This document shows, in pieces, positions 1 to 11,988 of a stretch of 38,123 nt of DNA. Where the stretch lies: contig JBHLRP010000031.1 in the NCBI GenBank assembly GCA_048882485.1, positions 1 to 38,123 on the forward strand, in the 5' to 3' direction. The stretch's first letter is position 1. Each line of letters begins with the position of its first letter. Both the position numbers and the translations under genes were made by a program. The notes under the pieces were generated by a model. It saw nothing but the letters and a program-made list of their open reading frames with translations. It had not been told where the DNA came from and made no database searches. Source of the stretch: Candidatus Thorarchaeota archaeon (GTDB taxonomy: Archaea > Asgardarchaeota > Thorarchaeia > Thorarchaeales > Thorarchaeaceae).

Positions 1-36
1 AGCTGCAGCATCTATTCCAGCTTCTGCTTCAGTCAC
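1..36 (-). CDS. 5' end of the next gene of hdr operon B (MTEAEAGIDAAA..., cut by window edge); possibly a paralog of the 117-aa wHTH protein
   Basis: GTG at 36-34 overlaps the hdrA TGA (GTGA coupling), is preceded by GGAGGTGA and stays open to the edge. GIDAAA loosely matches RIQAMA of 7892..8245, which sits in the same operon position. Confidence 0.55.
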   Translation of the reverse strand, partial: MTEAEAGIDAAA

Positions 37-2771
37 TTTACTTCACCTCCCCTCGAGAGGACAATAGTTGCCCTCATCGCTGCTGCACTCCCAGCTGCAA
101 CTGAGTCCGGAATGTCTTTCGGACCATCAGAGCAGCCGCAAGTGTAGATGCCATCCACGTCAGCATCAACTGGATACAGCAGCGGGTGTTCAACCTTCAC
201 GTATCCATCATTATCAAGTTCAATTCCAATGTCATCTGCGAGAATTTGCATGCCTTGTGAAGGTTGGATTCCTCCGCTCAAAACGATTAGATCATGCTTG
301 TTCTGCAGGAACTTCAGGTCCTCTGTGTCCTCAACACGAACAATGGCTTTCTCATCCTCGGTCTCCACTACTTCAGCGACTCTGCCTCTGATGAATTTGA
401 CTCCAAATCGTGTCTTAGCCATCTCTAGGAACTCCTCGAAGCCTTTCCCAAATGCTCTAATGTCAGCATAGTAGACGGTGACATCCACATCAGTATCATG
501 CTCCTTGGCCATTACAGCGTTCTTGATAGAATACATACAACATACTCTTGAACAATTAGGTACTCCTTTGTTCAAATCTCTCGCGCCAACACAGTTGATG
601 AACCCAATTGACTCAGGCGCTTTGCCATCACTCAGGCGAACTAGATGGCCCGCTGTCGGTCCAGCTGCATTGATCAGGCGCTCGTATTCCATTGCAGTGA
701 TCACATTGGGATGCGTCTCATAGCCTAAACGCGGATATTCTTTGACATCAAATAGCTTGTAGCCAGTTGACATCACGATTGCGCCCACTTCAAGTTCAAT
801 TATTTCATCTTTCTGACTGTGATCAATAGCTTCACGTTGACATGCTTCAACGCATTCCATGCACTCAGAGCACATGGTACAGTTCAGACAACGCCCGGCT
901 TCGACAATTGCAGTTTCAGCGTCAAAGCCAGTTTCTACCTCCTTGAAGGTTGTCCTTCTGTTGTAGATTGAAATCTTTGGCATTGGTGCTCGTGGATGAA
1001 CTCCAAACCGTGCTCTTCTGACATCTTCTGAAGCAAATTCAAGAAAGGTCTCGGGGCGACCTGATTTCAAATCCTCACCTTGGAGGAATCGATGAATTGA
1101 CTCAGCAGCGGCATTGCCTTGACCTACAGCCTCGACTACAAGTCCAGGACCAGTAGCTAAATCGCCACCAGCAAAGACATTTTCCATGCTTGTTTGGAGA
1201 GTGACGGGGTCGACCACTGGAGTTCCCCACTCAGTCACTTCCAATTTAGCATGAGGGCCTTTTGGATCAGCACGCTGACCAATTGCAATGACCATGTTCT
1301 CGAATGGAATCGAGAACTCTGATCCAGGAATTGGTATTGGTCGTCTTCTCCCTGAGTCATCAGGCTCCCCGAGTTTCATCTCAATGCAAGTAACTCCCAC
1401 GAGTCTCCCCTTGGATTCAATGCATTCTACTGGGTTGGTCAGAACTTTCAGTTCGATGCCTTCCTCGAGTGCATCATCGATTTCCGAGTGAATTGCAGGC
1501 ATCTCTGCTCTTGACCTACGGTAGATGATAGTCACATTCTTAACGCCCAGTCGCTTAGCCACTCGAGCTGCATCGATGGCTGCGTTGCCTCCACCAATAA
1601 CAGCTACATTGTAGCCAAGGCGGACTTTTTCTCCACGGTTGACTCTATCAAGGAAATCAATTGCATGATATACTCCATTTGAATCCTCATTCTTTATTCT
1701 CAGTTTGGAGCTAATCGGAGCACCAGTGCCGAGAAACACAGCTTTGAAGCCTTTGCTGAGAAGACTCTTGACTGAAGTAATTTCCTTTCCGTACAGAATC
1801 TTGACACCCATGTCCTCAACTATCTTGATTTCATTGGCGAGTACATCCCTTGGGAGTCGATGCGCAGGAATTCCATACCGAAGCAAGCCCCCGGCCTCCT
1901 CCCGCTTCTCGAAAATAGTGACTGGGTAGCTGAGTCTGGCCAGCTTCTCAGCGCATGCAATACCCGCAGGGCCAGCTCCAATGACAGCAACTTTGTCTTT
2001 TTTATCTATGACAGGAGCATCTACCTTGTAGCCACCTTGTTCGCGCTCTTTGTCATAGAGCCATCGGTGTAGATTCCGTATACTCACAGGATCATCAACG
2101 GAGCTTCGCTCACACTTCTCTTCACAGAGCGCGGGGCATACGCGGCCAAGGGAGCCTGGAAATGGGATTGCATCCCTGACCAGTCTCAGTGCCTTTTCAT
2201 TCTCTCCTCTTCGCATCAGAGCTGTGAAACCTTGAGGATTCACATGTGCTGGGCAATTGGTATAACAAGGCGCATGGCCACGCTTGTCTATGGTGTGCGT
2301 GTTCGGGGTTGCTTGCGGAAAGGGGATATAGATTGCTTTCTTGAATCCGATTCCTTGGTCGAACTCGTTGGGAACCTCTATTGGACAAGCAGATACGCAG
2401 TCTCCGCAACCATTGCACTTCTCCTCGTCTACATACCGAGCCTTTCTAAGCACCTTCACCTTGAAGGCCCCTGCACTTCCTTTTACTTCCTGGACCTCAC
2501 TATAGGTTAGCAAGTCGATGTTTGGATGGCGCTGCACTTCACTAAGTCGAGGTGTTAAGATGCATGCTGAGCAGTCTAAGGTAGGGAATGTCTTATCGAT
2601 CATGGCCATTCGCCCGCCGATGCTGCTTGACTTCTCTAGCAAATACACCTTGTAGTTTTGGTCGGCAATGTCCAGAGCGGCTTGCATTCCTGCGACACCA
2701 CCGCCCACTACAAGGGCATTTTCAGACCACTTGCCTTTCACAGCTCTGGTCCTTGATTTGGACAGGGTCAC
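33..2771 (-). CDS. hdrA: HdrA-like flavoprotein lacking the N-terminal Fe-S domain and C-terminal ferredoxin, with an inserted GltD/NfnB-like NAD(P)H oxidoreductase module (HdrL-like)
   Basis: VVGGGVAG Rossmann motif, DKTFPTLDCSAC, CNGCGDCVSACP, INCVGAR/CSRVCCMY and GPKDIPDSV are HdrA motifs. The internal CPAHVN/GRVCPALCE, GAGPAG, RYGIP, GGGNAA, YRRS and FAGGD motifs are typical of GltD/NfnB. Confidence 0.92.
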   Translation of the reverse strand: MTLSKSRTRAVKGKWSENALVVGGGVAGMQAALDIADQNYKVYLLEKSSSIGGRMAMIDKTFPTLDCSACILTPRLSEVQRHPNIDLLTYSEVQEVKGSAGAFKVKVLRKARYVDEEKCNGCGDCVSACPIEVPNEFDQGIGFKKAIYIPFPQATPNTHTIDKRGHAPCYTNCPAHVNPQGFTALMRRGENEKALRLVRDAIPFPGSLGRVCPALCEEKCERSSVDDPVSIRNLHRWLYDKEREQGGYKVDAPVIDKKDKVAVIGAGPAGIACAEKLARLSYPVTIFEKREEAGGLLRYGIPAHRLPRDVLANEIKIVEDMGVKILYGKEITSVKSLLSKGFKAVFLGTGAPISSKLRIKNEDSNGVYHAIDFLDRVNRGEKVRLGYNVAVIGGGNAAIDAARVAKRLGVKNVTIIYRRSRAEMPAIHSEIDDALEEGIELKVLTNPVECIESKGRLVGVTCIEMKLGEPDDSGRRRPIPIPGSEFSIPFENMVIAIGQRADPKGPHAKLEVTEWGTPVVDPVTLQTSMENVFAGGDLATGPGLVVEAVGQGNAAAESIHRFLQGEDLKSGRPETFLEFASEDVRRARFGVHPRAPMPKISIYNRRTTFKEVETGFDAETAIVEAGRCLNCTMCSECMECVEACQREAIDHSQKDEIIELEVGAIVMSTGYKLFDVKEYPRLGYETHPNVITAMEYERLINAAGPTAGHLVRLSDGKAPESIGFINCVGARDLNKGVPNCSRVCCMYSIKNAVMAKEHDTDVDVTVYYADIRAFGKGFEEFLEMAKTRFGVKFIRGRVAEVVETEDEKAIVRVEDTEDLKFLQNKHDLIVLSGGIQPSQGMQILADDIGIELDNDGYVKVEHPLLYPVDADVDGIYTCGCSDGPKDIPDSVAAGSAAAMRATIVLSRGGEVK

Positions 2772-3682
2772 TTCTTTGCCTCCTGCTCTCGGCGGATGAC
2801 CTTGGACTCGATTCTGTGAGCGAACTCGAGCAAGACATCAGGGCTAATCTTGTTCAGGGGCATACCAAGGGTTTCTTCGTCGATGCCCATCGCAGCTCCC
2901 ATGAACTGAGGTAGCGTGATAATAGGGATGCGATCTTTTGGCTCTCCACCTTCGCCAAATTGAACCTGAGTCAACTGAATGTTACAGAAGACACAGGCGG
3001 TCACAACTCCTTTGGCTCCGGCAGCCTTGACATTTCTTATTTTTTCAGCTCCAATCTTATTGGCTACCTCCTCATCCATAGCAAGCATTGGACCCCCGCA
3101 GCATCGAACCTTTCCAGCATAATCAATGGCATCAGCACCGCAAGCTTCAATGATGTCGTCAATGATTCTCGGTACTTCAGGATCATCAACTTTCACTATC
3201 TCAGCTGGACGAGTCACATGGCAACCATAATGAGCGGCCAAAGCAACTCCGTGATAAGGTTGGACTACAGCCCTCTTTATTGCATCATAGCCCACGTCAT
3301 CTCGAAGTATCTGAAGAATGTGCTTAACCTCAACTTTTCCAGTGTATTCTAGACCTTCTTCAGCGAGGAGATCATTGACTTCTTCTTTGAGTTCCGGTTC
3401 GGTGTCAAGCATGTGCTTCACGTGCTTCAAAGAACCAGAACAAGCTCCACAGACTGCGATAATATCTTTGTCGAACCGCTCTGCAACTGCCAAAATGCGA
3501 CCACTCATGGCTGCGAACGCAGGTCTACTCAATGATTCAATATACTGAGCTCCACAGCAGTTGACATCCTTCATATGGTGCGCATTTATGTCTAGATGCT
3601 TCAATATCGCCATGGTCGCAGCCTCATAGGCAGGAAGTCTGACAGGTGTTGTACAGGCGACATACACAAAATAATCGCTCAT
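2768..3682 (-). CDS. hdrB: Heterodisulfide reductase subunit B (CCG domains)
   Basis: Two CCG modules (NCCGA...CGAC; HYGCH...CCGG...CVFC); lies between hdrC and hdrA with overlapping stop/start codons. Confidence 0.92.
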   Translation of the reverse strand: MSDYFVYVACTTPVRLPAYEAATMAILKHLDINAHHMKDVNCCGAQYIESLSRPAFAAMSGRILAVAERFDKDIIAVCGACSGSLKHVKHMLDTEPELKEEVNDLLAEEGLEYTGKVEVKHILQILRDDVGYDAIKRAVVQPYHGVALAAHYGCHVTRPAEIVKVDDPEVPRIIDDIIEACGADAIDYAGKVRCCGGPMLAMDEEVANKIGAEKIRNVKAAGAKGVVTACVFCNIQLTQVQFGEGGEPKDRIPIITLPQFMGAAMGIDEETLGMPLNKISPDVLLEFAHRIESKVIRREQEAKK

Positions 3683-4206
3683 TCGAATACACCTCCAGAG
3701 AAATACCTCTTCCTCACTCTATGTGCAAATTCTTTATCCCAACCCAAGTCGGTGTCAAGTCCCAGATCTTGTCTGTCGTCCTCAATAAAGTCGGAATATG
3801 AGTCACCCAACATCCAACCGTCACTGAGAACTTTATTCACGATATTCTTGAATACCTCTGGAATATGTCCTTCCCGAGCAGCTATATGCCGGACAGCCTT
3901 GAATATCTCAGCTGGGCTGACACCCTCCTGGCATCTCTCTTCACACATTCTACAGGTCATGCAGAGCCATTGAAGTTCGCTCTGCAAGACTTCATCCCTC
4001 TTTCCAATAATGATCTTCTGAATCATCTGACGGGGGCGGTATCTATCTGAATAGGAAGCTACTGCACAAGAGGCAGTACAAATACCACACTGAATGCATT
4101 TGTTAATACCTTCACCACCAGGTTCAGCTGCAACTTCTTTAGCAAAATCAGAAGAAGGGGTATGTTCATTCTCAATTCCTTTATTGGACTCTGTTCGAGC
4201 ACCCAT
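3679..4206 (-). CDS. hdrC: Heterodisulfide reductase subunit C (2x[4Fe-4S])
   Basis: CIQCGICTASC and WLCMTCRMCEERC motifs; adjacent to hdrB. Confidence 0.92.
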   Translation of the reverse strand: MGARTESNKGIENEHTPSSDFAKEVAAEPGGEGINKCIQCGICTASCAVASYSDRYRPRQMIQKIIIGKRDEVLQSELQWLCMTCRMCEERCQEGVSPAEIFKAVRHIAAREGHIPEVFKNIVNKVLSDGWMLGDSYSDFIEDDRQDLGLDTDLGWDKEFAHRVRKRYFSGGVFE

Positions 4207-4335
4207 GTTTGGTCGACCTCTTCCAGACAGATTCTTCGGTTCATTCCACCTGTAATCTCGGGGAACTTCCCCTTATCCGTCTGTAATTTGTGGTGGAATT
4301 CCAGTTACAGGATGTGCCGACCCTCCTCCAGAATC

Positions 4336-4346
4336 ATTATATGTCT
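4336..4346 (-). promoter_or_regulatory. Putative TATA box of hdr operon B
   Basis: Minus-strand AGACATATAAT, nearly identical to AGAGATATAAT upstream of operon A. Confidence 0.45.
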
Positions 4347-4413
4347 ACTGTCTTCGAGGAGTAAGTATCTCGTTCATCTTGGTTTTGTATAATGAACACC
4401 AAGGCTGCGCTTT

Positions 4414-4430
4414 ATGTTCGATATCGACAT
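4414..4430. promoter_or_regulatory. Palindromic operator-like site ATGTTCGATATCGACAT
   Basis: Contains the perfect palindrome TCGATATCGA; a near-copy lies at 11654-11670 upstream of the other hdrC. Confidence 0.45.
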
Positions 4431-4512
4431 TATCGCCCATATTCATGAAATCAATGTTTTTTGTAACATTTTTGGCCGATTTCTTCTCCCAATCCTATGA
4501 GTGGTTAGCCGG

Positions 4513-7500
4513 CTACATGGTTCTGGACGCAGTTTCAATCATTGGCATGAGTTGAAATGTCTTATAGTGTTTCATATCTATGGCGTTCTGTGGACAAGCG
4601 GCGCTGCAAGTACCACAGCCTTGACACTGCTCACGTGCGATCATCATGATCTCATCTTCAAGCCTTGGAGCTCCATATGGACAGACATCAGCACAAAGCT
4701 CACATTTAATGCAGCTATCAGTGTCAATCTCTGCATAGATGGGCTCTATATCGAATTTTCCAGGACCCATTAATGCCTGTGCTTTAGCAGCAGCGGCCTC
4801 TCCCATAGCCACAGCCTTTGCTATGTCCATTGGACCAAGGCAAGTACCAGCAACAAACACACCATCTTGGAATGACTCCACCGGCCTTAGTTTCGGATGA
4901 GCACAGAGAAAGTATCCGTATCGATCAGTTGTCATCTTCAACATGCGTGCCATTTCGGGATTCTCAGGTTGTGGATGCAATGCTGTCGCCAAAACCACCA
5001 GGTCATAGGTGAGTCCGATGTTCATTCCAGTATAAAGATCTTCAGCATATACCTGAATCTTGTCATCTATCGGGTCATGCTCCAACTCAGATGCCCTACC
5101 CTTCACAATATTGACGCCCATCTCACGTGCTCTTTGATAGAGTTCTTCATATCCAATTCCATGAGTCCGAATATCCATTGTGTATATCGTTACATCGGTA
5201 TCAGGATACTTCTCCTTGACCTGAGTTGCCTGCTTCAAAGAGTTTTCACATCCAACATAGCAGCAATAGTCTCTGTCGAATCTCGCATCACGCGACCCCA
5301 CACACTGGAGGAATGCAATACTGGTTGGGATTCTTTCATCAGAAGGTCGCTTTATCTTACCATGAGTCGGACCAGCTGCATTTGTCAATCGTTCGAACTG
5401 TGCATTAGTAATGACATGAGGTAGAATTCCATAACCGTATTCACGAGTGTCCACTGGTTCGTATGATTGGGACCCAGTAGTAACGATAATGGTTCCTACA
5501 TTTCGATTCAGAAGTTGACCAGTCATTTTGTGGTCTATCGCATTCGGCTTACATACCTCGACACATTGATTGCATTCACAACATACTGCACAACTCATAC
5601 ATCTCTCAGCCTCAGCTAGAGCTCTCTTCTCATCAAATCCAAGTTCGACTTCAGCAAAGCTATTCTTCCGCTTTCCTGCGCTTAGCACTGGCACAGCATT
5701 TCTGGGGTGTACCTGAATCCCATCCTTGATGATGATATCCTCAGGGACAGGAGATGGTTCTTCTCCCCTTCCCAGAGCAAGATCCTCCCCAGCTAGGAAT
5801 CTATCAATGGAGATGGCTGCCTCTTTGCCCGCTCCTATCGCCTCAACGACAGTAGCAGGTCCCGAAACCACATCACCACCCGCAAAGACTCCTTTCTTAC
5901 TTGTCTGATAAGTGAGCTCGTCAACAGCAACAGTGCCCCACTGGCTAAGCTCTAGCCCCTTTAAAGGACCCTTTGGATCGACTAGCTGACCAATCGCAAT
6001 GATGATGTCATCAACCTTCAAATCAAATTCCGAGTCTGGGATTGCAATTGGGCGCTTTCTCCCTGAAGCATCAAGTGCACCCAACCGCATCTGAATACAT
6101 CGGATCCCTGTCACTCTGCCTCCGGTTTCGAGTATCTCCACAGGAGAGGATAGAATCTTTATCTTAATGCCCTCTCGTTCAGCCTCATCTATCTCGCTGC
6201 GGATTGCGGGCATCTCATCCCTTGACCGACGATAAACGATAGTGACTTGATTTACACCTAAGCGCTTTGCACTTCTAGCCGCATCGATAGCGGCATTCCC
6301 TCCGCCAATAACAACAACATTTTCACCAAGTGTGACCTTCTTTCCTTGATTGATTCGATTCAAGAAGTCAAGAGCATGATGAACGCCCTTCGCGTCTTCT
6401 CCATTCACTCTCAACTTGCTACTCAATGAAGCACCAGTTGCCAGAAACACAGCGTTATAGCCCTCTTTCTTTAGATCAGCAAGAGATTCCACATTCACTC
6501 CAGTCTTTATTTCGACACCTAGAGATTCAACCGCTGCAATCTCCTCTCTAAGAATATCTCTTGGAAGGCGGTACTCCGGGATCCCAAATCGTAGCAAGCC
6601 GCCTGGCTCAGTCTTTGCTTCGAAGACTGTGACCGGATAGCCCAATCTAACCAAATCGTACGCACATGCTATGCCAGCAGGGCCCGCACCAACTATCGCC
6701 ACCTTCTTCTTTTTGGTTGGCACGATTGGTGCTAATGGCTCCTCACCCTTCTCATGAGCGTTGTCAGCTAGGAAGCGATGAAGATTCCGAATGGACAATG
6801 GCTCGTCGATTGACGCTCGTTCGCATTTCTCCTCGCAAAGACTGGTGCATACTCTACCTAGAGAACCTGGGAATGGATTTGACTCTCGAAAGATTTCTAA
6901 TGCCTTGTCGAGGTTCTTTTCACGCATCAGTGTGATGAACGCGTGGCCATTGACTCCTGCTGGACATGCTATTCGGCAAGCAGCAGTGCCTCTCTTATCA
7001 ATGGTGAACGTGTTGGGTACTGCCTGCGGAAATGGTCGATAGATTGCCTTCCTATCAGCCAGACCATATTCGTATTCATTCTTCACCCGAACAGGACATA
7101 CTGGTTCACACTCACCGCATCCATTGCAAATATCAGCATCGACATAGCCTGCTTTCTTTCTAATTGAGAGTTTGAAATCACCCACATGTCCCTCAACCTT
7201 CTCTAGCTCACTATACGCAAGGAGGTCTATCTCAGGATGCCGCTCTACTGACGCCATGATGGGTCCAAGAATACAGATTGCACAGTCATTTTGCGGAAAT
7301 ACCTTATCTAAGAGAGCCATCTGCCCACCTATAGTTGGACGCTTCTCAATGAGAGTGACCGGATAGCCAGCGTTAGCTAGGTCTAGAGACGCTGATATTC
7401 CAGCAACTCCTCCACCCAATACAGCTACTCGAGGTATGACTACTACTGATTCCATTTCCAGTGATTCAAGTTCACGAGCACGTGCAATAGCCATCTCTAC

Positions 7501-7878
7501 AAGGTGCTTTGCCTTTTCAGTCGCCTTTTCCTTCTCATCCATATGGCACCATGAAACATGTTCCCGAATGTTCACCATCTCAAAGAGGAATCGATTTAGT
7601 CCAACCTCTTCAATTGTCTTTCGAAACACAGGTTCATGTGTCCTAGGTGTACATGATGCAACTATGACTCGATTAATATCATGCGTTTCTATGGTCTCCT
7701 TTATTGACTTGAGACCGTCTGAAGAGCAAGTAAACATAAGGTCGCCGCTGAAGACTACGTTTGGAAGATCTTTGATATGATCACGAACAGCTTCTACGTC
7801 AACAGTCCCTGCAATGTTTAGGCCACAATGGCAAGTCCAAATGCCAATTCGTACATCATCGCTTTTGTCAACTGTCAT
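4513..7878 (-). CDS. hdrA: Full-length HdrA (N-terminal Fe-S domain, C-terminal ferredoxin) with an inserted GltD/NfnB-like NAD(P)H module (HdrL-like); start 7878 or 7887 rather than 7944
   Basis: RIGIWTCHCGLNIAG, ASCTPRTHE, NIREHVSWCH, GGGVAG, DKVFPQNDCAIC, inserted GltD motifs, QCVGSRD, HPKLRPV and terminal CIKCELC/CQGCGTC. AGGAG at 7888-7892 is well spaced from ATG 7878. Confidence 0.93.
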   Translation of the reverse strand: MTVDKSDDVRIGIWTCHCGLNIAGTVDVEAVRDHIKDLPNVVFSGDLMFTCSSDGLKSIKETIETHDINRVIVASCTPRTHEPVFRKTIEEVGLNRFLFEMVNIREHVSWCHMDEKEKATEKAKHLVEMAIARARELESLEMESVVVIPRVAVLGGGVAGISASLDLANAGYPVTLIEKRPTIGGQMALLDKVFPQNDCAICILGPIMASVERHPEIDLLAYSELEKVEGHVGDFKLSIRKKAGYVDADICNGCGECEPVCPVRVKNEYEYGLADRKAIYRPFPQAVPNTFTIDKRGTAACRIACPAGVNGHAFITLMREKNLDKALEIFRESNPFPGSLGRVCTSLCEEKCERASIDEPLSIRNLHRFLADNAHEKGEEPLAPIVPTKKKKVAIVGAGPAGIACAYDLVRLGYPVTVFEAKTEPGGLLRFGIPEYRLPRDILREEIAAVESLGVEIKTGVNVESLADLKKEGYNAVFLATGASLSSKLRVNGEDAKGVHHALDFLNRINQGKKVTLGENVVVIGGGNAAIDAARSAKRLGVNQVTIVYRRSRDEMPAIRSEIDEAEREGIKIKILSSPVEILETGGRVTGIRCIQMRLGALDASGRKRPIAIPDSEFDLKVDDIIIAIGQLVDPKGPLKGLELSQWGTVAVDELTYQTSKKGVFAGGDVVSGPATVVEAIGAGKEAAISIDRFLAGEDLALGRGEEPSPVPEDIIIKDGIQVHPRNAVPVLSAGKRKNSFAEVELGFDEKRALAEAERCMSCAVCCECNQCVEVCKPNAIDHKMTGQLLNRNVGTIIVTTGSQSYEPVDTREYGYGILPHVITNAQFERLTNAAGPTHGKIKRPSDERIPTSIAFLQCVGSRDARFDRDYCCYVGCENSLKQATQVKEKYPDTDVTIYTMDIRTHGIGYEELYQRAREMGVNIVKGRASELEHDPIDDKIQVYAEDLYTGMNIGLTYDLVVLATALHPQPENPEMARMLKMTTDRYGYFLCAHPKLRPVESFQDGVFVAGTCLGPMDIAKAVAMGEAAAAKAQALMGPGKFDIEPIYAEIDTDSCIKCELCADVCPYGAPRLEDEIMMIAREQCQGCGTCSAACPQNAIDMKHYKTFQLMPMIETASRTM

Positions 7879-7891
7879 CTTACTCATCTCC

Positions 7892-8245
7892 TTAAGTCTG
7901 CATGAAGCTCTTGGAATACAGATACTCCCGTTTTTCTTCGCCAACGATCTCTACCTTGTTCCACTTCATCAAGGCTAGAATATTCCAGAGGACTCGGTGC
8001 GGCTCAAGTCCCGTTGCTTTAGCAATCTGTGAAACTGTCACTGGACTATCACTCATGTGCTTCATTATATAGTGCCTTTCATACTCCTCTTGGATGGTCT
8101 TTTCCATCAACTCCTTGAATTTCTCTTGAGTCAACTCTCCATTTTGGACAAGGACATCGCCTTTTCCTATGAGCCATCTGAGACGCTCATCAGCGAAAGC
8201 ATCGGCCATCGCTTGTATACGATCGCTGTCTACAGTTTCTTTCAT
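7892..8245 (-). CDS. Small hdr-associated protein with a C-terminal winged helix-turn-helix
   Basis: PVTVSQIAKATGLEPHRVLWNILALMKWNKVEIVG fits an HTH followed by a wing; its ATG overlaps the stop of the upstream hdrA. Confidence 0.75.
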   Translation of the reverse strand: MKETVDSDRIQAMADAFADERLRWLIGKGDVLVQNGELTQEKFKELMEKTIQEEYERHYIMKHMSDSPVTVSQIAKATGLEPHRVLWNILALMKWNKVEIVGEEKREYLYSKSFMQT

Positions 8246-9585
8246 TACTTAGCCCCTCCTTGTGCGAGGGTGATACTAGCACGCATCGCGGCCGCACTCC
8301 CTGCCGCGACACTGTCAGGTATGTCCTTTGGAGATTCGGCACAACCACATACGTAGATGCCAGGGACTTTTGTGTCTACAGGAGTAATAGTTGCATTCTC
8401 AACAGTAAGGAATCCATCACTATCAAGCTCAAGCCCCATCTGGATTGAGAGGCCCTTCAACGTCTTTGGCGGCAGAATTCCTGGGCAGATTACAACCAGC
8501 TCGTGTTCGTTCTGCAAGAACTTTCCAGTTTCGGTGTCTTCCACACGTACAACGAGATTCCTGTTCTTTAGATTCTCAGTAACTTCGCCGACACGGCCCC
8601 GAACGAACTTCACGCCAAATCTTTCCTTCGCCATCTCCTTGAATTCTTCAAACCCCTTTCCGAAGGCTCGAAGGTCTGCATAATAGAGAGTGACATCTTT
8701 CACATGATCGTGAGCAAGCTCAAATGCCATCACTCCATTTTTGATTGAATACATACAACATATACGTGAGCAGTTGGGAACGCCCTTCTCAACGTCCCTG
8801 GCGCCAACGCACTGGACGAATCCAATCGACTTTGGAATCATTCCGTCGCTCAGCCGCATAAGATGTCCGCCAGTAGGGCCAGCGGCATTGATAATCCGCT
8901 CATACTCCAATGCATGCATGACATTCTTGTATCTACCATAACCAAGCCGTGGATACTTGGTTACATCATAGAGTTCGTAGCCTGTAGCAACCACTATAGC
9001 TCCTACCGGGATTTCGACTTCCTCATCCACCGCATCAAGCATCACTGCATCCCTTTGACAGGATTTCTCACACATACCACATTTGATGCAGTTCTCTTCG
9101 TCAATAGTGTACACAAGCGGCGTACTCTGTGGAAATCCAATGTAGACTGCCTTTCGAAATCCGAGGTCTTGATCGAACTCATTGGGCACTTCAATGGGAC
9201 AATGAGGCACGCAGTCGCCACAGCCTGAGCAGAGTTCCTCGCTAATCTTTCGAGATTTCCTCCTGACCTTGATTCGGAAATCTCCAGCCTTGCCAGTCAC
9301 GCCAATAACTTCGGAATATGTCAGGAGCTCGATATTTGGATGCCTTGCGACCTCCGACAATCTTGGTGTCAGGATACACGCCGAGCAGTCAAGAGTTGGG
9401 AACGTCTTGTCCAGCATTGCCATGACGCCGCCTATGGAAGGTGATTTTTCTACCAACACAACTTTGTAATTCTGGTCAGCGATGTCAAGCGCGGCTTGCA
9501 TCCCTGCGACGCCTCCACCAATGACCATGGCGGTTTCAGAAGGAAGCAGATGGTCATAAGTCACTTTGTCTCCGGCAATCGTCAT
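8245..9585 (-). CDS. hdrA: Short HdrA (FAD module plus inserted 2x[4Fe-4S] ferredoxin; no N-terminal or C-terminal Fe-S domains)
   Basis: GGGVAG, DKTFPTLDCSAC, CSGCGDC..CP, CIKCGMC, QCVGAR, CSRICCMYSIK, PKDIPDSV; very similar to the HdrA part of 33..2771. Confidence 0.92.
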   Translation of the reverse strand: MTIAGDKVTYDHLLPSETAMVIGGGVAGMQAALDIADQNYKVVLVEKSPSIGGVMAMLDKTFPTLDCSACILTPRLSEVARHPNIELLTYSEVIGVTGKAGDFRIKVRRKSRKISEELCSGCGDCVPHCPIEVPNEFDQDLGFRKAVYIGFPQSTPLVYTIDEENCIKCGMCEKSCQRDAVMLDAVDEEVEIPVGAIVVATGYELYDVTKYPRLGYGRYKNVMHALEYERIINAAGPTGGHLMRLSDGMIPKSIGFVQCVGARDVEKGVPNCSRICCMYSIKNGVMAFELAHDHVKDVTLYYADLRAFGKGFEEFKEMAKERFGVKFVRGRVGEVTENLKNRNLVVRVEDTETGKFLQNEHELVVICPGILPPKTLKGLSIQMGLELDSDGFLTVENATITPVDTKVPGIYVCGCAESPKDIPDSVAAGSAAAMRASITLAQGGAK

Positions 9586-10049
9586 TTTCCAGCACCTCCT
9601 GCTGCTGCTTTCTTTCGTTTCGATGGCGGGATTGATGGTTTAGCCAATGGACTAGGACCCAGTTTCTTGATGTTTTTAGTCATCTCGGTTATCCCCTCAG
9701 CCCATTGTTGACCCTCTGATGCACTTGCCCAAAGGAGCTTCAGTCTATCAGGATGCAGACCCATCAGACTCATAGCTGAGGAAAGAGCTTCATATCGGAC
9801 GAGCGTACGATAATTGCCGGTAGAATAGTGACAATCTCCAATGTGACATCCGCTAATCATAACGCCGTCAGCTCCATTTTTGAACGCTTGGAGAACCATC
9901 GACGGATCCACACGGCCGGAGCACATCAGGCGGATGACCTTTGCATTTGTGGGATACTGGATTCGGGAGATTCCGGCTAGATCAGCCCCTCCATATGAAC
10001 ACCAATTACAGGTGAAAGCTACAATATTCGGCTCAAAACGCTTGCTCAT
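9582..10049 (-). CDS. mvhD: MvhD/FlxD-type [2Fe-2S] subunit
   Basis: FTCNWCSYGGADLAG, RLMCSGRVDP, GCHIGDCHY, WASASEG. Confidence 0.95.
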   Translation of the reverse strand: MSKRFEPNIVAFTCNWCSYGGADLAGISRIQYPTNAKVIRLMCSGRVDPSMVLQAFKNGADGVMISGCHIGDCHYSTGNYRTLVRYEALSSAMSLMGLHPDRLKLLWASASEGQQWAEGITEMTKNIKKLGPSPLAKPSIPPSKRKKAAAGGAGK

Positions 10050-10960
10050 GTCGCTGCCCCTCCTTTTCCAGCTGCCTCTCCTTTGAGTTTAGCAACAAAG
10101 GAAGCAGTACTGGCAGTATGCTGCTGAAGTCCGATTTCCCTAGGACTAAAACCAAAAGCCAAAGCAAGTATCTGGGGGTAATGAAGGACTGGGATGTTTA
10201 GGTCTTCGATATCGTACTTGTTCTTGATAATTCTCTGGCCCATATCATGCTGTATGTGACATAATGAGCAGACGGTGACTAGTCCGTCGACATCAGCTTC
10301 CTTAGCATCAAGAAGACGTTCCTTTAGCACCTCATCCGCGAGGTCATCAGCTGTTCCTCTGAGAAGTCCTCCGCAGCACCTGTGTCTGCCCGCATAGTTC
10401 TTGCTGGTTGCTCCAATACCCTCCAGAATTTCGTCTGCAAATGTAGGTCGCTCAGAGTACTCTATGTTGAGGATCTCATGTGGCTTCAGCATATGGCATC
10501 CATAGCGAAGTCCAAGCTCAACACCTTCGAAATCCCTCACCATCTTGCTCTGAATGACATCAATACCAATCTCATGGTAGAAAAAGTCGATGAGGTGAAA
10601 CGCCTCAACAGTTCCATCGTATCTTAACCCAGCAGGCCGCAGAATGTTGTTGATTTGTTCATGGACCCCTGGATACTTCTTTATAGTGTGATTCACTCTC
10701 TTATATGAGTGAAAGCAGCCACTGCAAGGCGTAAGCATGTCTAGACCCATCTCCTCCGCCTTGGCTAGATTCCTAGCAGCAAAAGCTAGGCTAGTTGTGA
10801 GGTCCAGCGACTGCATCCAAAATGGAGCGCAGCAAGTCTCGTTTGGAACATCAACTATTTCAACATCGAGATGATCAAGGACTTTTCGAGTGGCCGCTTC
10901 ATAACCAAGAAGCGAGCGTCGTGAAGGGACTAGGCATCCCCAAGCGATTGCCATCTTCAT
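10046..10960 (-). CDS. hdrB: Heterodisulfide reductase subunit B
   Basis: WGC, TCCAP, PCSGC, YGCH, CCGG and VCSLCHIQHD CCG-domain motifs. Confidence 0.92.
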   Translation of the reverse strand: MKMAIAWGCLVPSRRSLLGYEAATRKVLDHLDVEIVDVPNETCCAPFWMQSLDLTTSLAFAARNLAKAEEMGLDMLTPCSGCFHSYKRVNHTIKKYPGVHEQINNILRPAGLRYDGTVEAFHLIDFFYHEIGIDVIQSKMVRDFEGVELGLRYGCHMLKPHEILNIEYSERPTFADEILEGIGATSKNYAGRHRCCGGLLRGTADDLADEVLKERLLDAKEADVDGLVTVCSLCHIQHDMGQRIIKNKYDIEDLNIPVLHYPQILALAFGFSPREIGLQQHTASTASFVAKLKGEAAGKGGAAT

Positions 10961-11523
10961 TTCGATGTATCCCTCCCTTTGTAAAGCGCCAAGATCTTGT
11001 CAAATCCAGATGCCTGAATGATCTTGCTAATCTCCTCCATTGCAGGTTCCTGTAAGGGAGGAAGATCCAACTTCTCACGCATTCTGTCTACCGCGAATGT
11101 CTTCGGAACAACTCGACCGTGTGCTACCACAGTCCTAGCCATCTCCAAATAGCCATCAGCTGCATAGCCCTCTTTAACTGCCATATTCCGGAGGATTGTC
11201 ACGATGTCAGTGAAGTTGACTTCCTGAACGCACCGCTCCTCACAAGTGAAGCAAGCGGCACACATCCAGATGTCTTCGCTGGTCAACACTAGATCCTTTA
11301 GGCCCAGCAGTACATTTCCAAGCACTTTTCTGGGTCGATAATCAGTCACTGCTCCAACCGGACAGCCTCCACTGCAGGCTCCACATTTTAGGCAGCGTAA
11401 GAGCCCCTCTCCCCCAACGTGACTTGCCACCTCATACTTGAATCCCCTATTTACATCTTCATCATGTATTGGAGCATCATCTCGTTGGGTCCTGACTTCA
11501 TCAGTCTGTCCCATGTTCGTCAC
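10957..11523 (-). CDS. hdrC: Heterodisulfide reductase subunit C
   Basis: CLKCGACSGGCP and WMCAACFTCEERC; start GTG 11523 or ATG 11514. Confidence 0.92.
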   Translation of the reverse strand: MTNMGQTDEVRTQRDDAPIHDEDVNRGFKYEVASHVGGEGLLRCLKCGACSGGCPVGAVTDYRPRKVLGNVLLGLKDLVLTSEDIWMCAACFTCEERCVQEVNFTDIVTILRNMAVKEGYAADGYLEMARTVVAHGRVVPKTFAVDRMREKLDLPPLQEPAMEEISKIIQASGFDKILALYKGRDTSK

Positions 11524-11653
11524 CCAGTACCCCTGTCTGATCCCTGATATGCATTCGATGGTATCGGGGTTCAGTTGAATACAAGTCTCGATGTCCCGAG
11601 ACGAGTAAGAGCCAATGCCACGCTTTCGATGTCCCTACTTTGAATCAGGTTTC

Positions 11654-11670
11654 ATGTTCAATATCGTACA
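11654..11670. promoter_or_regulatory. Imperfect palindrome ATGTTCAATATCGTACA, operator-like
   Basis: Matches 4414-4430 at 12 of the first 13 positions. Confidence 0.45.
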
Positions 11671-11693
11671 AAGTAATATGGGCAAATCGAAGT

Positions 11694-11704
11694 ATTATAT
11701 CTCT
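11694..11704 (-). promoter_or_regulatory. Putative TATA box of hdr operon A
   Basis: Minus-strand AGAGATATAAT, matching the 4336-4346 element. Confidence 0.45.
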
Positions 11705-11988
11705 GACGATTCTGAATTCCATTCAACTATAAGCAATCACTAATGTTATGCTAAGTAATTCTTGAATATCGTGATTGAAAACATACATTTCCGGACATAT
11801 CATGTCGAGGGGACATTTTCGTTGTCCAACTGACTCTAATCACTCATCACAGCAAATATGGCCTATGTCGACTACACAAAAGCTGCGAGATTTGCGATTT
11901 CTCTAACGTTTTTCATTATTGGTGATTTGCGAATCCATTCAATACACCATTTAATGAGTAACAGAAACGGGCAAATGATGTTTGAAAT

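Follow-up and report, generated by a model that had tools for sequence, protein, structure and literature searches.

We analysed a 38,123-nt stretch of DNA from Candidatus Thorarchaeota archaeon (contig JBHLRP010000031.1 of assembly GCA_048882485.1) that begins with two tandem operons for subunits of heterodisulfide reductase (Hdr). This whole stretch, called the window below, is the complete contig C31 of a metagenome-assembled genome (MAG) of 3.96 Mb in 157 contigs, 90.5% complete. In what follows, G000 denotes the genome of the window, C31, C46 and so on its contigs, and L-numbers the loci compared, from this genome and its relatives. Open reading frame (ORF) listing together with Pfam and NCBIfam scans places nine genes, all co-oriented on the minus strand, within positions 33-11523, confirming the gene positions given in an earlier reading of the bare sequence (the original prediction). 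The six genes of operon A follow the order hdrC_A, hdrB_A, mvhD_A, a 446-amino-acid (aa) hdrA, a 117-aa winged-helix (wHTH) gene and a ~1120-aa hdrA, and neighbouring genes overlap by 1-4 nt. The features of this operon are:

11524..11988, minus strand: 465-bp upstream region of operon A, recognised from gene spacing and a near-palindrome.
10957..11523, minus strand: hdrC_A, 188 aa (TIGR03290, E 1e-36), with two 4-Cys ferredoxin motifs (8 Cys).
10046..10960, minus strand: hdrB_A, 304 aa (TIGR03288, E 1.6e-77; PF02754), with two CCG domains.
9582..10049, minus strand: mvhD_A, 155 aa, a [2Fe-2S] adaptor (PF02662, E 4e-51).
8245..9585, minus strand: short HdrA, here HdrAs, 446 aa, matching residues 143-569 of 5odc_A (E 4e-145).
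7892..8245, minus strand: small winged-helix protein, 117 aa, recognised from an alignment, an AlphaFold2 (AF2) model and weak fold matches.
4513..7887, minus strand: long type III HdrA/HdrL, here long HdrL, ~1120 aa, with an ATG start at 7887 or 7878, matching NF040770 in two stretches.
5602..7005, minus strand: NfnB/GltD-like cassette of long HdrL, with the FAD motif GxGxxG, GGGNAA, YRRS and the N-terminal Fe-S cysteines.

Cysteines 9, 43, 44, 79, 82, 155, 195, 196, 231 and 234 of HdrB_A supply all 10 ligands of the two noncubane clusters. The features of operon B, which runs off the window at its left edge, are:

4207..4512, minus strand: 306-bp intergenic region, presumed from gene spacing to hold the promoter of operon B.
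3679..4206, minus strand: hdrC_B, 175 aa (TIGR03290, E 7e-27), with 8 Cys.
2768..3682, minus strand: hdrB_B, 304 aa (TIGR03288, E 3.4e-68), with complete CCG cysteines (10, two noncubane clusters).
33..2771, minus strand: HdrL912, a short-type HdrA with an NfnB cassette, 912 aa, recognised from domain scans and a paralogue alignment.
891..2291, minus strand: NfnB/GltD-like cassette of HdrL912, recognised in the same way.
1..31, minus strand: first 10 codons of hdrA588 by translation, with a GTG start at 31-29; the gene continues at G000:C46:25563-27329.

The first 77 bases of the window are exactly the last 77 bases of contig C46. This overlap is unique in the assembly, in which 77-nt end overlaps join many contigs. 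On C46, Pfam scans place hdrA588, mvhD_B, a 79-aa wHTH paralogue, vhuG, vhuA and a selenocysteine (Sec)-containing vhuU after the 912-aa gene, so that the full operon B reads hdrC-hdrB-hdrL912-hdrA588-mvhD-wHTH-vhuG-vhuA-vhuU. Relatives L005-L008 each have a matching gene order on one contig, with the orthologue of the hydrogenase large subunit at the expected coordinates, and the order hdrL912-hdrA588-mvhD-(wHTH)-vhuG-vhuA is kept in relatives. L008 has hdrA588 directly after hdrB_B and no hdrL912, and L092 has a plain short hdrA at that position. Window bases 1-11523 are best explained as the larger part of a ~16.5-kb two-operon Vhu/Mvh-Hdr supercluster.

The original prediction had described both operons as hydrogenase-free. 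No mvhAG lies in the part of the cluster inside the window, and to that extent the description stands. Beyond the edge it is refuted for operon B, because this operon continues into hydrogenase genes on C46, with vhuG and vhuA ~1.5 kb past the end of the window and in an order kept in relatives. The prediction had itself named a cognate mvhAG just outside the window as a finding that would count against it, and for operon B this is what was found. It had also expected a long hdrA partner of operon B to the left of the window, and HdrA588 was indeed there. Its view of the operons as two isoforms had to be given up, as operons A and B differ in architecture and are not variants of one.

The hydrogenase large subunit of operon B is in two pieces. 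VhuA carries RICGIC and lacks the C-terminal metal-binding motif. Downstream of it on the minus strand, a VhuU-like ORF of ~53 aa (G000:C46:22481-22642 = L083:13482-13643) encodes the motif ...DCULSCGAH... with an in-frame TGA. The two Cys pairs by which a large subunit binds metal are both present, one as RICGIC in VhuA and the other as DCULSCGAH in the separate peptide. Because the TGA of this peptide is conserved in nine related loci, the enzyme is, as far as its sequence tells, a split [NiFeSe] hydrogenase with a VhuU-like selenopeptide. Such a division of the large subunit, with a Sec-containing VhuU-like peptide, resembles that of Methanococcus Vhu. A split hydrogenase of this kind would be annotated as incomplete by ORF callers.

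The HdrA proteins of the supercluster are of three complementary kinds. HdrAs and HdrL912 represent the short type, in which an FAD core, the equivalent of Cys197 and the inserted ferredoxin domain are present, but neither an N-terminal Fe-S domain nor a C-terminal ferredoxin. In HdrAs, the offset of the 5odc_A alignment identifies C70 in FPTLDCSAC as Cys197 of 5odc; its inserted ferredoxin domain and the 4-Cys cluster of its TrxR domain are intact. HdrA588 (the 'N/C' type) combines an N-terminal Fe-S domain with a C-terminal 2x[4Fe-4S] ferredoxin; it has no Cys where 5odc has C194 and C197, and it lacks the inserted ferredoxin domain altogether. Long HdrL is the complete type, with all four canonical domains including the C-terminal 2x[4Fe-4S] ferredoxin, an inserted ferredoxin domain split by the cassette, and a Cys197 equivalent at C224 (1143-aa frame) in the motif FPQNDCAIC.

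The HdrA FAD core with its 4-Cys cluster was confirmed in the HdrLs by NF040770/NF041891 matches in two stretches and by CVGxR...CC motifs; in long HdrL the two NF040770 stretches flank a PRK12771/Fer4_20+Pyr_redox_2 region. Across ~25 Thorarchaeial loci, the features of each kind are conserved in every sequence compared (short type, 19/19; HdrA588 type, 14/14; long HdrL, 24/24). All five paralogues aligned also keep E356 and K409, the signature of bifurcating HdrA flavins (criterion as cited in PMC9430772). The division of HdrAs into two types by their end domains, as originally predicted, is thus borne out: the 446-aa and 912-aa proteins lack both end domains and the long one has both.

The genome is very rich in further HdrA paralogues (C4:60917-70444, C50:1-3287, C74, C28, C15), among them a split short/long pair and two HdrA-MvhD fusions. 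An 885-aa HdrA-MvhD protein with an N-terminal extension adjoins a divergent [NiFe] hydrogenase. In some congeners (L007:5003-6985, L010:3207-5192) an additional hdrA, complete and cassette-free (660 aa), stands between hdrB_A and mvhD_A; its absence from the genome of the window points to rapid gain and loss of HdrA genes inside operon A.

HdrL912 and long HdrL each carry an NfnB/GltD cassette of ~470 aa that separates the two 4-Cys motifs of their inserted ferredoxin domain. In the five-paralogue alignment the cassette occupies one column in HdrL912, long HdrL and a third type III protein, HdrL1161. The first reading had understated its extent and the fact that both large HdrAs carry it at one site. 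Compared with NfnB, StnA and GltD structures, the cassette gives E-values of 1e-124 to 1e-88, its best solved relatives being 9bov_A, 9n5u_A, 8oh5_C (StnA), Thermotoga maritima NfnB 4ylf_B and Pyrococcus furiosus NfnI 5jca_L. Its motifs are intact, with GAGPAG for FAD and GGGNAA...YRRS aligned to GGGNTA...YRRT of 5jca_L. In the P. furiosus NfnI site, two conserved Arg bind the 2'-phosphate of NADP (PMC6405883). These observations support the assignment of the cassette as a complete NfnB-like module with 2x[4Fe-4S], FAD and a putative NADP(H) site. The GGGNAA and YRRS motifs singled out in the original prediction are present in both cassettes in register with the NADP site of 5jca_L, and the NADPH-type pyridine nucleotide link that it proposed holds at the level of sequence.

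An NfnAB transhydrogenase was considered and rejected, the cluster having no NfnA-like partner ([2Fe-2S], FAD, NADH site). A stand-alone NfnB-like/NfnA-like pair lies at G000:C7:41192-46994 (L094), adjoining NuoG/FdhA-like molybdopterin and NuoF-like proteins, and indicates a conventional Nfn-type module in the organism as well.

HdrL912 has a mosaic make-up. It shares 76% and 63% identity with the short HdrA in its two HdrA flanks and 57% with long HdrL in its cassette, whereas the cassettes of the two long paralogues share only 44% identity with each other. Because the HdrL912 cassette is nearer to that of long HdrL than the cassettes of the long paralogues are to one another, the comparison suggests a transfer of the cassette from one paralogue to another, with exchange at the conserved ferredoxin motifs. 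The third type III HdrA, HdrL1161 (1161 aa; G000:C46:6472-9957 = L084:6472-9957, minus strand), is 56% identical to long HdrL and has no hdrBC or mvhD neighbours. In its cassette GGGNVG, CLET and a 5-residue insertion replace GGGNAA and YRRS, and these replacements are kept in its orthologues. Without the two NADP-phosphate arginines, HdrL1161 may use NADH or another partner.

The three kinds of HdrA raise the question of which proteins pair. HdrL912 or HdrAs, with a Cys197 equivalent (C70 in HdrAs) and no N-domain, is complementary to HdrA588, which has the N-domain and no Cys197. The same pattern was used by Chadwick et al. to propose HdrA heterodimers (PMC9012536). In 11 of the 12 loci whose upstream neighbour is visible, a gene of the HdrA588 type stands right after a short-type hdrA, with or without a cassette, and its start codon overlaps the stop codon of that gene. 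Two proteins in the genome of the window are fusions, one of 1152 aa (short type, HdrA588-like and MvhD) and one of 1047 aa (short type and HdrA588-like). None of five targeted genomes has a short HdrA without an HdrA588-type gene, and no clear case turned up in the family-wide sample. From domains, gene order and fusions we infer that HdrL912 and HdrA588 most likely form a split Moorella-type heterodimer on the Vhu hydrogenase. The concept of a heteromeric HdrA, put forward in the original prediction, is supported by the domain complementarity of the short and HdrA588 types.

In canonical HdrA the inserted ferredoxin domain is the low-potential outlet to ferredoxin, and the route that we propose for the HdrL912/HdrA588 complex follows the canonical electron path summarised in PMC9012536. 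The [NiFeSe] hydrogenase would be linked by MvhD to the ferredoxin at the C-terminus of HdrA588. HdrBC would take the high-potential branch to the disulfide. The N-domain cluster of HdrA588, completed by Cys70 of HdrL912, would lead to the inserted ferredoxin clusters and from there, instead of to free ferredoxin, to the Fe-S clusters and FAD of the NfnB module and to NADP(H). The complex would couple H2/H+, disulfide/dithiol and NADP(H). Two directions would fit the predicted proteins: H2 could drive the reduction of NADP+ and disulfide, or NADPH could drive disulfide reduction and H2 evolution. A direction of the NADPH type with H2 evolution has been proposed for the Bathyarchaeota type III cluster with mvhADG (PMC12054007).

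Operon A, which lacks hydrogenase genes of its own, is best explained as encoding a second Hdr that would be wired to NADP(H). Taken together, we consider it probable that the locus is a Vhu/Mvh-Hdr supercluster with three kinds of HdrA, in which a 912/588 complex couples H2, disulfide and NADP(H) and operon A supplies the second NADP(H)-wired Hdr. Several points weigh against this interpretation. The join of C46 to C31 rests on the 77-nt overlap in the assembly graph and on synteny in relatives, and every subunit pairing is drawn from domain complementarity, gene order and fusions. The genus has two short-type HdrAs and one HdrA588-type gene, which bears on stoichiometry. The NfnB flavin could be a plain NADPH dehydrogenase site or a second bifurcation site. 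Finally, no mcrA was found that would point to the physiological disulfide.

The alternative that survives best is the earlier reading of operon A, as a hydrogenase-free complex in which an HdrAs/long HdrL heterodimer works with MvhD_A and HdrB_A/C_A. NADPH, entering through the HdrL cassette, would be the mid-potential donor, and bifurcation would deliver electrons to disulfide through HdrBC and to ferredoxin through the inserted ferredoxin domain of HdrAs, which is free, a reaction that is thermodynamically sensible and parallels the proposal for FlxABCD-HdrABC. HdrAs has Cys70 and needs an N-domain donor, and HdrL is the only one in operon A; yet HdrL shows no complementary loss, keeping FPQNDCAIC as well as the N-domain in 24/24 orthologues, and with all four domains it is self-sufficient as a homodimer. 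The six genes are tightly coupled through their 1-4 nt overlaps and recur as a set in every orthologous locus, and L012, L022, L024 and L034 have no adjacent HdrA588-type gene, but each genome checked that has a short HdrA also has an HdrA588-type gene. Although hdrL in this genus occupies the place of hdrA582 in other genera, most other genera couple the short hdrA translationally to an HdrA588-type gene and not to hdrL, and the short type is found fused with the HdrA588 type but never with HdrL. A short plus long heterodimer in operon A, as originally predicted, is not the best-supported pairing, HdrA588 being the true complement, and we regard this reading as possible but doubtful.

In a second alternative the subunits are exchanged between complexes. 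HdrL would form a homodimer with HdrB_A/C_A and MvhD_A, and HdrAs and HdrL912 would alternate on one HdrA588/Vhu, giving ferredoxin-output and NADP(H)-output forms of one H2-linked complex. Outside the cassette, HdrAs and HdrL912 are closely related paralogues (76% and 63% identity), the genus has two short types for one HdrA588 type, and L008 has no hdrL912 while L092 has a plain short hdrA at its place. However, there is no sign of HdrAs leaving the operon A complex, and the two operons, with a 306-bp gap between them, have separate promoters. We think this arrangement unlikely. The specific switch that it implies, in which one hydrogenase-bound HdrA588 accepts either short partner and so changes its low-potential outlet between ferredoxin and NADP(H), appears improbable. 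In that reading, with two bifurcating-signature flavins and the NfnB flavin in one complex, there might even be two bifurcation sites in series. A single supercomplex of the hydrogenase, two MvhD, three or four HdrA types and two HdrBC is highly improbable, for although L046 and L012 hold all genes in one unbroken cluster with two tandem hdrCB pairs, the operons lie ~140 kb apart in the complete congener genome CP070658.1 and the domain count fits discrete dimers.

Both operons also encode a small winged-helix protein. The 117-aa protein of operon A is conserved there across Thorarchaeia, as its alignment shows, and has a near-invariant N-terminal helical motif, DERLRWLIGKGD. Its AF2 model has a pLDDT of 88.5, and Foldseek matches are to generic winged-helix, ArsR/SmtB and DsrD folds, all with E > 1e-3; DsrD is a small winged-helix protein of dsr operons. 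The 79-aa paralogue (L083:15894-16133, G000:C46:24893-25132) lies between mvhD_B and vhuG and is 33% identical to the 117-aa protein over 55 aa (E 4e-13). The protein could be a regulator or an enzyme-bound subunit. No similarity (E 0.75) was found between it and the DNA-binding extension at the N-terminus of the HdrA-MvhD fusion on C15.

A related near-palindrome, CGATAT[C/T]GAACAT[A/G]AA, was seen by eye and without statistics at ~4414-4430 and ~11648-11669 on the minus strand. It is a possible candidate for a shared operator of both operons. No exact shared word of >=10 nt was found between the upstream regions of operons A and B.

The remaining genes of the window, for an aminotransferase, EamA transporters, PEPCK, AOR and others, are unrelated to Hdr. 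Long-HdrL orthologues with 85-96% identity come from the closest relatives, MAGs labelled Hermodarchaeota, Promethearchaeota and Thorarchaeota. These relationships to Thorarchaeota/Promethearchaeota MAGs, together with the fact that mcrA was not found in the genome of the window, support a non-methanogenic host, as had been predicted.

Among known systems, the FlxABCD-HdrABC complex of sulfate reducers links Hdr to pyridine nucleotide without a hydrogenase, through the separate NADH-dehydrogenase subunits FlxABC. It resembles operon A as first read, whereas here the nucleotide module is inserted in HdrA itself. Membership in this group was rejected, no flx genes being found in the window or on C46.

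The MvhAGD-HdrABC and Vhu-Hdr complexes of hydrogenotrophic methanogens (5ODC, 8RVU) share HdrB, HdrC, MvhD and the small and large hydrogenase subunits with the supercluster, and the HdrA core here is roughly 55-60% identical to methanogen HdrA as read from the printed alignment. Hydrogenase genes together with hdrA and mvhD, which define such systems, occur for operon B only, on C46. Canonical methanogen HdrA is one complete protein that forms a homodimer and reduces free ferredoxin. Here, in contrast, the domains are split over two proteins and the ferredoxin outlet would be wired to an NADP(H) module.

HdrL of Desulfobacterium autotrophicum HRM2 (Strittmatter et al., 2009, PMC2702500) is likewise a fusion of HdrA with a glutamate-synthase part and a pyridine-nucleotide site. 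In that organism mvhD follows each hdrL gene, and one locus has tandem hdrL/hdrA with hdrCB. It differs in being bacterial and often a selenoprotein, in having dsrABC/fdh as neighbours, and in that its description holds no analysis of N-domain/Cys197 complementarity.

Closer still is type III HdrA (HdrA9/10/11) of ANME-1 and Bathyarchaeota (Chadwick et al., 2022, PMC9012536; Microbiol Spectr 2025, PMC12054007). As here, a ~470-500-aa GltD/NfnB-like insertion lies inside the inserted ferredoxin domain, and two backbones carry it, one complete and one short. The Bathyarchaeota cluster also holds mvhADG, and NAD(P)H has been proposed as a direct redox partner. Unlike those systems, the present one belongs to a non-methane-metabolising Asgard archaeon and has both backbones in tandem operons. 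Its nucleotide motif is of the NADP type (GGGNAA, YRRS), whereas NADH has been argued for type III HdrA (PMC12054007). By their sequences, long HdrL and HdrL912 are members of this published class, type III HdrA/HdrL (PMC2702500, PMC9012536, PMC12054007). The building blocks, the idea of a heterodimer and that of an NAD(P)H link are already in the literature (PMC9012536, PMC12054007, PMC2702500, PMC9430772). In the literature on Asgard archaea and Thorarchaeota we found no description of these clusters, apart from references in general terms to multiple or fused HdrA (PMC11237513) and to MvhADG-HdrABC.

The class is common in the family of the window. A query spanning the HdrA/cassette junction gave full-length junction matches in 58/76 sampled genomes, as against nine sequences, from methane- and alkane-metabolising archaea only, in the published survey (PMC12054007). 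The junction also occurs in at least five other Asgard families, in open frames of ~860-1665 aa. HdrA588-type genes were found in 59 of the 81 family genomes searched (G000 included), covering all 16 genera sampled. To our knowledge, the type III HdrA/HdrL class has never been purified, except that the Moorella enzyme has been studied in part. No closer relatives of eukaryotes are known than the Asgard archaea, and models of how eukaryotes arose build on the hydrogen and redox metabolism of these archaea. In this Thorarchaeial family, most genomes encode Hdr complexes with a predicted built-in NADP(H) port, at least one of them wired to a [NiFeSe] hydrogenase, which suggests a direct coupling of the H2, NADPH and thiol/disulfide pools in these organisms. 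The locus offers cleanly separated subunits for expression.

The nearest match to the proposed heterodimer is HdrA of Moorella thermoacetica, a 1487-aa subunit of the MetFV-HdrCBA-MvhD complex that oxidises NADH, and the sole precedent that we found for NAD(P)H oxidation by a type III HdrA/HdrL (PMC9430772). Its N-terminal half, a short-type HdrA interrupted by a GltD module, corresponds to HdrL912. Its C-terminal half, with an MvhD-like N-domain, a TrxR core, a C-terminal ferredoxin and no inserted ferredoxin domain, corresponds to HdrA588, and the order of the two is kept. Unlike in Moorella, the halves here are separate genes in an archaeal host, and their partners would be a [NiFeSe] hydrogenase and HdrBC rather than MetFV.

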